Source of the DNA: a virus
Taxonomy: Duplodnaviria > Heunggongvirae > Uroviricota > Caudoviricetes
Direction: 5' to 3' (one strand)
DNA: 9,260 bases
IMG/VR virus record: IMGVR_UViG_2700989488_000014
Position 1 is the stretch's first letter. Each line of letters opens with the position of its first letter. Positions 3,001 through 6,000 of this stretch are shown here, in pieces. Made by a program: the position numbers.

Positions 3001-6000
3001 TGCTGGAAGGACTTGGGGATGTGGATATTGACAGTCACGCACAGGACGTCGTGACGGAAGATACCACGGAAAAACATGCGGATGAGGAAGCACAGACTCA
3101 GACGGGCGATAACAATGTGGCACCGACGCCGGATGCCAGTGTGGAGCAGACGCAGGACGTGAAGGAGCCGGAAGCGAAGGGGGTGCTCACCCGCGACGGT
3201 AAACACGTCATTCCCTATGAAGTCCTTGAGGCTGAACGTTCCGGTAAGCAACGGGCCGAACAGGAAGCCGCACTTCTTCGTGGGCAGATAGCTGAAGAAA
3301 AACGCAGGGTGGAACTGCTGACGTCTCAGATCCACCAGGCCGGTATGAAGCCCACACCGTTACCGGAAAACGAAAAAATTTCTGATGAGCAGATTGCCCG
3401 TATCAGGGAGATGTATCCGGAAATTGGTGACGCGGTGGCTTCGCTCATCCGTAAAAATAACTATCTCCAGTCCCGTGTTCAGCAATCAGCACAGCAGGCA
3501 GAAGGTAATGGTGGTGAGGATTTATCACCGGTTCTTGATGCGATGAATGCCGTGCCGGTGCTGAAAACGTGGCAGGAGTCCGATCCAGATCGCTTCTCGG
3601 TTGCTGTATCCATCGACGGGAAGCTCCAGAATGACCCCGCATGGAAAGACAAAACGCTCACTGAACGTTTCGCTGAAGTGGCCCGTCGTACGCAGGTTGC
3701 TTTCGGTGAAGTCAGTGAGTCGTCTGCTGACAACAAGGCAGACAAAACGGATATCCGGAAAACGGCGGAAGAGAAAGTGAAGACCGCTGAACAGGAGCAG
3801 GCAGTACCTGCTTCCCCGTCAGATTTAGGCACCACGGCTTCCGTTGGAACCGGTGATAATTTTGAACGGTTACTTGGCGCTTCTCATTCAGAGGCAGAGG
3901 CGATTATGCGCGGTATGACGAATGCTGAAATAGACGCGCTTCTGGAGAAGCTCGGGTAACTTACTGAAGGAGAACTGAAGTAATGACGACTGTAACATCA
4001 GCCCAGGCGAATAAGCTGTATCAGGTGGCGCTTTTTACCGCTGCCAACCGCAACCGCTCGATGGTCAATATCCTCACTGAACAGCAGGAAGCGCCAAAAG
4101 CGGTTTCGCCGGACAAGAAAAGCACGAAGCAGACCAGCGCGGGTGCGCCGGTTGTACGGATCACTGACCTCAACAAACAGGCCGGTGATGAAGTGACGTT
4201 CAGCATCATGCACAAACTCTCTAAACGTCCGACGATGGGGGATGAGCGCGTTGAAGGCCGTGGTGAAGACCTCAGCCATGCTGATTTTTCCCTGAAAATT
4301 AATCAGGGCCGTCACCTGGTGGATGCGGGCGGACGTATGAGCCAGCAGCGTACGAAGTTCAACCTGGCATCCTCTGCCAGAACGCTGCTGGGTACGTACT
4401 TTAACGACCTGCAGGACCAGTGTGCGATAGTGCATCTTGCCGGTGCCCGCGGTGATTTTGTTGCTGACGACACCATTCTGCCAACGGCAGATCACCCTGA
4501 ATTCAAAAAAATCATGATCAACGACGTACTGCCGCCGACGTATGACCGTCATTTTTTTGGTGGTGATGCGACGAGTTTTGAGCAGATCGAAGCGGCAGAT
4601 ATTTTTTCTATTGGCCTGGTGGACAATCTCTCCCTGTTCATTGACGAAATGGCGCATCCGTTACAGCCGGTTCGTCTGTCCGGTGATGAACTTCACGGAG
4701 AAGATCCATATTACGTCCTGTACGTCACGCCGCGTCAGTGGAATGACTGGTACACCTCGACGTCCGGTAAGGACTGGAACCAGATGATGGTTCGTGCCGT
4801 GAACCGTGCAAAAGGTTTTAACCATCCGCTGTTCAAAGGTGAATGTGCGATGTGGCGGAATATCCTGGTTCGTAAGTATGCGGGTATGCCGATCCGTTTC
4901 TATCAGGGTTCAAAGGTTCTGGTATCAGAGAATAACCTGACGGCAACCACGAAAGAGGTCGCTGCTGCAACCAATATTGACCGCGCCATGTTACTGGGGG
5001 CTCAGGCGCTGGCAAATGCTTACGGTCAGAAGGCAGGCGGTCACTTCAACATGGTTGAGAAGAAAACGGATATGGATAACCGTACTGAGATAGCAATCAG
5101 CTGGATCAACGGTCTGAAAAAAATCCGTTTCCCCGAGAAGAGCGGCAAGATGCAGGATCACGGCGTGATTGCCGTTGATACCGCAGTGAAGCTCTGATTT
5201 TTCCTTTCCCCATGCCGGGTTTTCGCCCGGCTTTTTCTGGAGTCATTAATTATGGCAAAGACTATTCTTGCCCCGTCACTGAGTGAACGGGTCTATACGG
5301 GCACGCACGGTAATGAGTCGGTGGCAGAAGGCGTATTTACGGTGAATGCTGCGGAAGCGGACAGTGTTATTCATCTTCTCTCACTGCCAGTTGGCATCCG
5401 TATCAACTCACTCCAGCTGGTTTCAACGGGCGGTCTGGGTACTGCAACCGTCAGCATTAAGTCTGGTGAGCATGTTCTCATCGATAACAGCGAAGCTGTT
5501 TCTGCAAAATTTGCCAGATATGTGCCAGTGGAGCCGTACACCACACAGCGTGACGGAGAGCTGGTTACTGTCACCATTAAGACTGCCGCTGCAACCGGCA
5601 CCCTGAATGTTCTGCTGCGTTATACCGTGGTGGGATACTGATTAAAACCTTCCGGCCCGCGTCATGCGGGCTTTTTATCCGGGGAATTTATATGAGCGAG
5701 AAAATTGCCGTTGTCTATATCGGCCCAAAACCCGTGAAAAAGGACACCATTACCGGAAGTCGCACGCTGTTCCCACGTCTTGAGCCGGTGCATGTTGACA
5801 GCGCGATGGCCTGGCAACTGCTGGGGTTTCCGGATGTCTGGGTTCGTCATGAAGAGCTTGATGATGTTCTGAAAAAGCAACAACAGAATGAGCAGTTGCG
5901 GCAGGCACAGCAGGCGCAGGAAAGAGTGCTTGCTGCGCTGGTAGAAGCGGAGAACAGTTTTGTTGTTTCTGTTAACGGGCAGGAGGTGGATTTAAGTAAG

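Follow-up and report, generated by a model that had tools for sequence, protein, structure and literature searches.

The window, by which we mean the whole 9,260-nucleotide stretch of DNA analyzed here, comprises the head/tail morphogenesis block of a short-tailed Stx2a-converting phage of the 933W/phi24B type. Across the 901 bases that span the open reading frame (ORF) of interest, identity is 100% to many Stx2a-converting phages and 98% to 933W, and the phage that carries the ORF is a Shiga-toxin-converting, short-tailed member of the Sepvirinae. The genes and signals at the locus are as follows.

Start of the window: terminase gene, 3' end only.
650-2794: P22-type portal gene.
2812-2835 (to 2841 with its T-run), + strand: hairpin 3, 3' of the portal gene.
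2952-3959: scaffold-like gene.
3983-5197, + strand: major capsid protein (MCP) gene, 404 aa, HK97 fold, Pfam Phage_capsid_3 (PF13252).
5214-5231 (to 5236 with TTTTT), + strand: hairpin 1, at the junction of the capsid gene and the ORF of interest, GCCGGG-TTTT-CGCCCGGC, 7 bp, of which 6 are GC.
5239-5242, + strand: Shine-Dalgarno sequence GGAG, 9 nt 5' of the ATG.
5252-5641, + strand: ORF of interest, 129 aa, the probable cement gene; equivalent to 933W L0117 and phi24B vb_24B_31/gp67.
5654-5672 (to 5677 with TTTTT), + strand: hairpin 2, 3' of the same ORF, GGCCCGC-GTCAT-GCGGGC(T), 8 bp, of which 6 are GC.
5692-6153: 153-aa ORF, PHROG 482, function label "unknown".
3' of the 153-aa ORF: two adaptor genes of the SU10-adaptor type.
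7347-9185: collagen-like fiber gene, a 612-aa ORF with a GTG start that overlaps the stop codon of adaptor 2.

The order portal, scaffold, MCP, cement, 153-aa protein, adaptor, adaptor recurs in phages of E. coli, Edwardsiella, and Vibrio, and in the window as in its relatives the cement gene lies directly 3' of a Phage_capsid_3 gene within a P22-portal/SU10-adaptor module. Several observations concern the neighboring genes themselves. The 612-aa ORF contains long collagen-like Gly-X-Y runs, and its counterpart is the phi24B "tail spike"/gp61 fiber gene. The adaptor-1 ORF, called mechanically at 6029-6700, begins with a GTG at 6029; because the genes annotated in relatives encode 187 aa and phi24B gp64 "adaptor 1" matches, the true start is most likely the ATG at 6137, which gives 187 aa and an overlap of 17 nt with the end of the 153-aa ORF. 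All relatives examined have the 153-aa ORF 3' of their cement gene, and the ORF shows a weak, sub-threshold winged-helix match. Its product may be a non-virion assembly factor, since the label of its phi24B counterpart, gp65, is absent from those rows of the phi24B virion proteome table that were examined. Between the portal and scaffold genes, a site occupied in the window by the hairpin at 2812-2835 alone, an Edwardsiella tarda prophage (L004, 884-1406) and two metagenome relatives (L005 and L006) carry a minus-strand ParE toxin gene together with an overlapping 83-aa gene; the pair resembles a toxin-antitoxin moron.

The 129-aa ORF is a real gene; the possibility of a chance ORF was rejected on the basis of conservation and virion proteomics. 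The initial annotation had given it a ribosome-binding site of its own and a place right behind the capsid gene, and both descriptions are borne out by the GGAG at 5239-5242 and by the short distance between the end of the capsid gene at 5197 and the start of the ORF at 5252 on the same strand. A GGAG also stands 5' of the ATG in the cement genes of relatives. The richness in Thr, Val, Gly, and Ser that had been pointed out is equally real, as these residues make up 41.9% of the protein versus 22-29% of six neighboring proteins. A homologue is present in 189 phage records; among complete E. coli genomes, the gene is carried by 420 of 5426 (~8%), in up to three copies each, as counted with positions 5198-5691 (the gene and its flanking hairpins), where the RefSeq/PGAP label is "hypothetical protein."

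We conclude, with a probability of roughly 93%, that the product of this ORF is the capsid cement protein of a Shiga-toxin-converting phage with a short tail. None of our results is at odds with this assignment. The direct evidence for a cement role comes from the phi24B orthologue, and would carry over to the window phage by virtue of sequence identity at 128 of 129 residues. The cement function itself has been known since April 2026 from a preprint (bioRxiv 10.64898/2026.04.10.717836) that describes cryo-electron microscopy (cryo-EM) and proteomics of the Stx phage phi24B and calls gp67 its cementing capsid protein (10.64898/2026.04.10.717836). We resolved the phi24B gp numbering by the genome coordinates in the proteome supplement of that preprint. 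In its table, "gp67" is the stop-to-stop frame 35933-36382, and the protein that matches ours, vb_24B_31 (ADN68452.1), is encoded at HM208303 35996-36385; gp67 is therefore vb_24B_31, because the frame contains the gene (21 + 129 = 150 codons). The labels gp69 (MCP), gp72 (portal), gp70, and gp64 and gp62 (adaptors) map likewise onto the neighboring genes. The gene for gp67 occupies the same site behind the capsid gene, between the same flanking hairpins, and its product shares His19 with the window protein (T18-H19-G20). The two proteins differ at one residue, which is Val75 in the window protein and Ala in phi24B. For practical purposes the two are the same protein. The window prophage is an Stx2a phage of a lineage other than that of phi24B.

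In the phi24B structure, trimers of gp67 occupy the outer face of a T=9 HK97-fold shell at every meeting point of three capsomers; the asymmetric unit contains nine copies, a number equal to that of the MCP that amounts to about 540 copies per head (10.64898/2026.04.10.717836). Each subunit consists of an N-terminal arm and a 4+4 immunoglobulin-like beta-sandwich, and the trimer is a rigid "tulip" in which the beta-sandwich of each subunit gains a strand from the arm of a neighbor; the three His19 side chains of a trimer point at the junction and act as its anchor (10.64898/2026.04.10.717836). The phi24B shell lacks covalent isopeptide chainmail cross-links (10.64898/2026.04.10.717836). In the window phage, the product of the MCP gene at 3983-5197 would form the shell bound by the cement trimers. 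The initial annotation had proposed an abundant decoration or cement protein of the capsid surface, and had named as decisive the mass spectrometry of purified particles and cryo-EM of capsids at three-fold or quasi-three-fold positions. Both experiments have already been done on an essentially identical protein, and both favor the cement idea: phi24B gp67 was detected in purified virions by LC-MS/MS, and its trimers were modeled at the three-capsomer junctions. Our search of the literature for cryo-EM of the 933W capsid found nothing relevant.

Structure prediction, another check that had been suggested, leads to the same answer. The AlphaFold2 model of the window protein (mean pLDDT, 86.4; pTM, 0.81) is all-beta, with an extended N-terminal arm (residues 1-21; pLDDT, 59-71) that includes a short strand, and a predicted eight-strand beta-sandwich of 4+4 topology (residues 22-126; pLDDT, about 90) that holds the eight main strands. 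A single helix of 4 residues is present, consistent with the earlier remark that the protein has no long helices. When this model was used in a Foldseek search, four of the five top matches were the cement proteins of GP4, Pam1, and KHP40/KHP30, whereas the second-tier matches were lectin- and CBM-like. A Pfam scan assigned the window protein to no family, the same scan of 54 members of its own family yielded no family and only scattered sub-threshold matches, and curated models of Ig-like decoration domains (Big_2, Hoc-like, Pfam) did not match the window protein. Nor does the window protein conform to the fold of lambda gpD.

The proteins that share the predicted fold come from phages of Ralstonia, a cyanobacterium, and Helicobacter. 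In Ralstonia phage GP4, gp1 (PDB 8H89 chain J; 157 aa) has the same fold at 17-18% identity to the window protein, and the window capsid protein is likewise homologous to the GP4 capsid protein (8H89_A; E = 1.3e-38). The cyanophage Pam1 protein gp6 (PDB 7EEL chain H), from a T=7 capsid and a cyanobacterial host, is about 20% identical, and the fold recurs in gp15 of Helicobacter phage KHP30 and gp16 of KHP40 (PDB 7DN2 and 7DOU), in which both termini form an anchoring sheet and sequence similarity to the window protein is marginal. Lambda gpD does the same job as the gp67-type cement proteins with a different fold. Its trimers occupy three-fold and quasi-three-fold sites, with as many subunits as there are of the capsid protein, and its gene lies beside the capsid gene. 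The GP4 head, like that of phi24B, is T=9 with 540 cement subunits (PMC9698820). The arm of GP4 gp1 folds back into its own sandwich, makes no "hugging" contact, and uses an Asp rather than a His as the anchor (10.64898/2026.04.10.717836).

Sequence searches reach these proteins only in part. Searched with a profile, a set of 1.84 billion representative proteins yielded no more than 76 matches at E <= 0.001, almost all with lengths of 125-140 aa, and we built the family profile and alignment from 54 of the 76. When compared with PDB sequences, the 54-member profile gave as its four best matches the Pam1 cement protein (E = 9e-4), a 143-aa structural protein (entry 26de chain W; E = 0.017), and the cement proteins of KHP40 and KHP30 (E about 0.02, a marginal value); GP4 gp1 was not found. 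A search of PDB chains with the single sequence found no identical chain and none of the GP4, Pam1, or KHP cement proteins. Its sole match, the C-terminal domain of a mannanase (E = 0.05), was treated as chance or compositional similarity. PDB entries 26de and 44ny also contain a chain S that resembles the window capsid protein (E = 2e-13). Because one entry holds distant homologues of both proteins (chains S and W), these sequence matches suggest that 26de/44ny represent another phage with the same capsid-cement pair.

The family alignment places the strongest conservation in the arm and at a few positions of the body: G17, G20, N21, and S23 in the former and G48, G63, G116, Y124, and G128 in the latter are nearly invariant in the 54 members. 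In the window protein the arm residues form the motif G17-x-H19-G20-N21-x-S23, encoded at 5300-5320 for residues 17-23. His19, however, is found in only 18 of the 54 members. Because the histidine is present in this minority while G17, G20, N21, and S23 are nearly invariant, the anchoring detail published for phi24B may not generalize across the family, and the Gly-x-x-Gly-Asn-x-Ser turn may be more generally important than the histidine.

We next consider whether the trimers do something besides, or instead of, cementing. The phi24B authors proposed a role in host contact by analogy with Pam1 (10.64898/2026.04.10.717836), in which the trimers would serve as a module that binds the host surface or its glycans and makes the first reversible contact with the cell or with mucus. 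Several of our observations are compatible with such a role. The cement protein diverges faster than the capsid protein, with identities to the same relatives of 84, 67, 40, and 33% versus 94, 95, 71, and 57%; among close relatives the N-terminal arm and the last strand are conserved, while the positions that vary cluster in residues 28-38 and 57-95; and the lectin- and CBM-like matches in the second tier of the fold search would fit a glycan-binding surface. Each of these points has a more ordinary reading, however. Eight-strand beta-sandwiches resemble CBMs and lectins generically, we see no conserved binding site or ligand residues, and divergence faster than that of the capsid protein is expected for any exposed accessory protein. 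We therefore consider a host-contact function possible but unlikely, and the structural role of the cement protein at capsomer junctions holds regardless.

The expression context of the cement gene had been described as insulated by flanking terminators, and the two parts of that description fare differently. Terminator-like elements do flank the gene, as G+C-rich hairpins with T-runs at 5214-5231 and 5654-5672; the first begins 17 nt past the capsid stop codon and the second begins 13 nt past the stop of the cement ORF. No + strand terminator-like site of the window is stronger than these two and the hairpin at 2812-2835; over both strands, the window contains 16 such sites versus 8.2 +/- 2.6 in shuffled sequences. 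Compared with dinucleotide shuffles, the folding z score is -3.0 for hairpin 1 and only -0.9 for hairpin 2, and folding energy alone is thus insufficient to prove hairpin 2. Conservation of position supports both hairpins that flank the cement gene. A hairpin with a T-run is present at both cement-gene junctions in other E. coli phages, and the Edwardsiella tarda prophage, whose cement protein is 40% identical, has hairpins at 845-869, 3961-3978, and 4408-4423, at the same three junctions; their stems are unrelated to those of the window, and again they are the top three + strand sites. In a Vibrio phage, a hairpin is kept behind the capsid gene only, with none behind the cement gene. Rfam gave no match anywhere in the window, and the phi24B preprint makes no mention of the hairpins (10.64898/2026.04.10.717836).

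Insulation is the part that does not hold up. If the two hairpins were true insulating terminators, the cement gene would be a transcription unit with a promoter of its own, a reading for which the canonical hairpin and T-run architecture and the conserved hairpin positions can be cited. Nevertheless, the 54-nt spacer between capsid and cement genes is filled by the hairpin and the ribosome-binding site, and nothing promoter-like is present between 5197 and 5252; on the + strand, the closest candidates are at 6336 and 7653. The late genes of Stx phages are moreover transcribed from PR' by a Q-modified, terminator-resistant RNA polymerase (PMC7547250), as in established lambdoid biology, and complete termination would silence the downstream neck and tail genes. 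Because late transcription is antiterminated by Q, the spacer lacks a promoter-like site, and the downstream genes need to be expressed by read-through, it is unlikely that the hairpins isolate the cement gene, and we rejected a separate transcription unit as very improbable. In the literature on transcript maps of Stx-phage morphogenesis genes, only general statements about Q antitermination were found. The hairpin triplet brackets the scaffold, capsid, and cement genes, whose proteins are required by the hundred, and we infer that the hairpins are more likely to tune mRNA amounts than to insulate. Within the Q-antiterminated late transcript they could act as partial terminators or as stabilizers of 3' ends. 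In either mode, the neck proteins would have less message available than scaffold, capsid, and cement, and mRNA for head proteins of about 540 copies would be kept well above that of the neck and tail genes farther 3', whose products number 12 copies.

That the ORF might encode a neck, tail, or internal virion protein is hardly credible: the full-length match to PHROG 486 (E = 1.2e-60) bears the label "virion structural protein" and nothing more specific, but in the cryo-EM structure the orthologue sits on the outside of the capsid, where the density, assigned at a local resolution of 2.5-2.7 A, refutes such a role for phi24B (10.64898/2026.04.10.717836), the fold matches are cement proteins and not neck or tail parts, and the neck proteins are already accounted for by the two downstream adaptor genes.

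With the ORF read as a cement gene, a mechanism can be proposed. The trimers would act as clamps at three-fold and quasi-three-fold junctions, where HK97-fold shells are probably weakest mechanically, and they probably bind during or after shell maturation. By analogy with GP4 gp1, Pam1 gp6, KHP30 gp15, and lambda gpD, they may stabilize the DNA-filled head, and clamping of this kind could take the place of covalent cross-links, as has been argued for the same four systems. A more ambitious proposal joins the two themes discussed above. It holds that the fast-evolving surface of the 180 trimers is a multivalent, low-affinity glycan adhesin and that the hairpin triplet sets expression ratios. 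We regard this combination as distinctly unlikely. If true, the adhesin trimers would help a 74-nm head with a 22-nm tail to find a cell by way of host or mucosal glycans, and the hairpin triplet would fix ratios of roughly 1:1 for capsid to cement and roughly 45:1 for head to neck in the Q-antiterminated transcript.

The cement function itself is no new discovery, as it was published in April 2026; the databases lag behind the preprint. To published knowledge we add only two small points, the conservation of the hairpin triplet and the motif shared across the family. The identification does allow correct annotation of a gene whose public label is still "hypothetical protein" and for which there is no Pfam model. 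As a repeated, exposed surface antigen of about 540 copies, the protein may be of use in detection, display, and studies of head stability. Shiga toxin genes are spread by phages whose every particle is coated with this protein.
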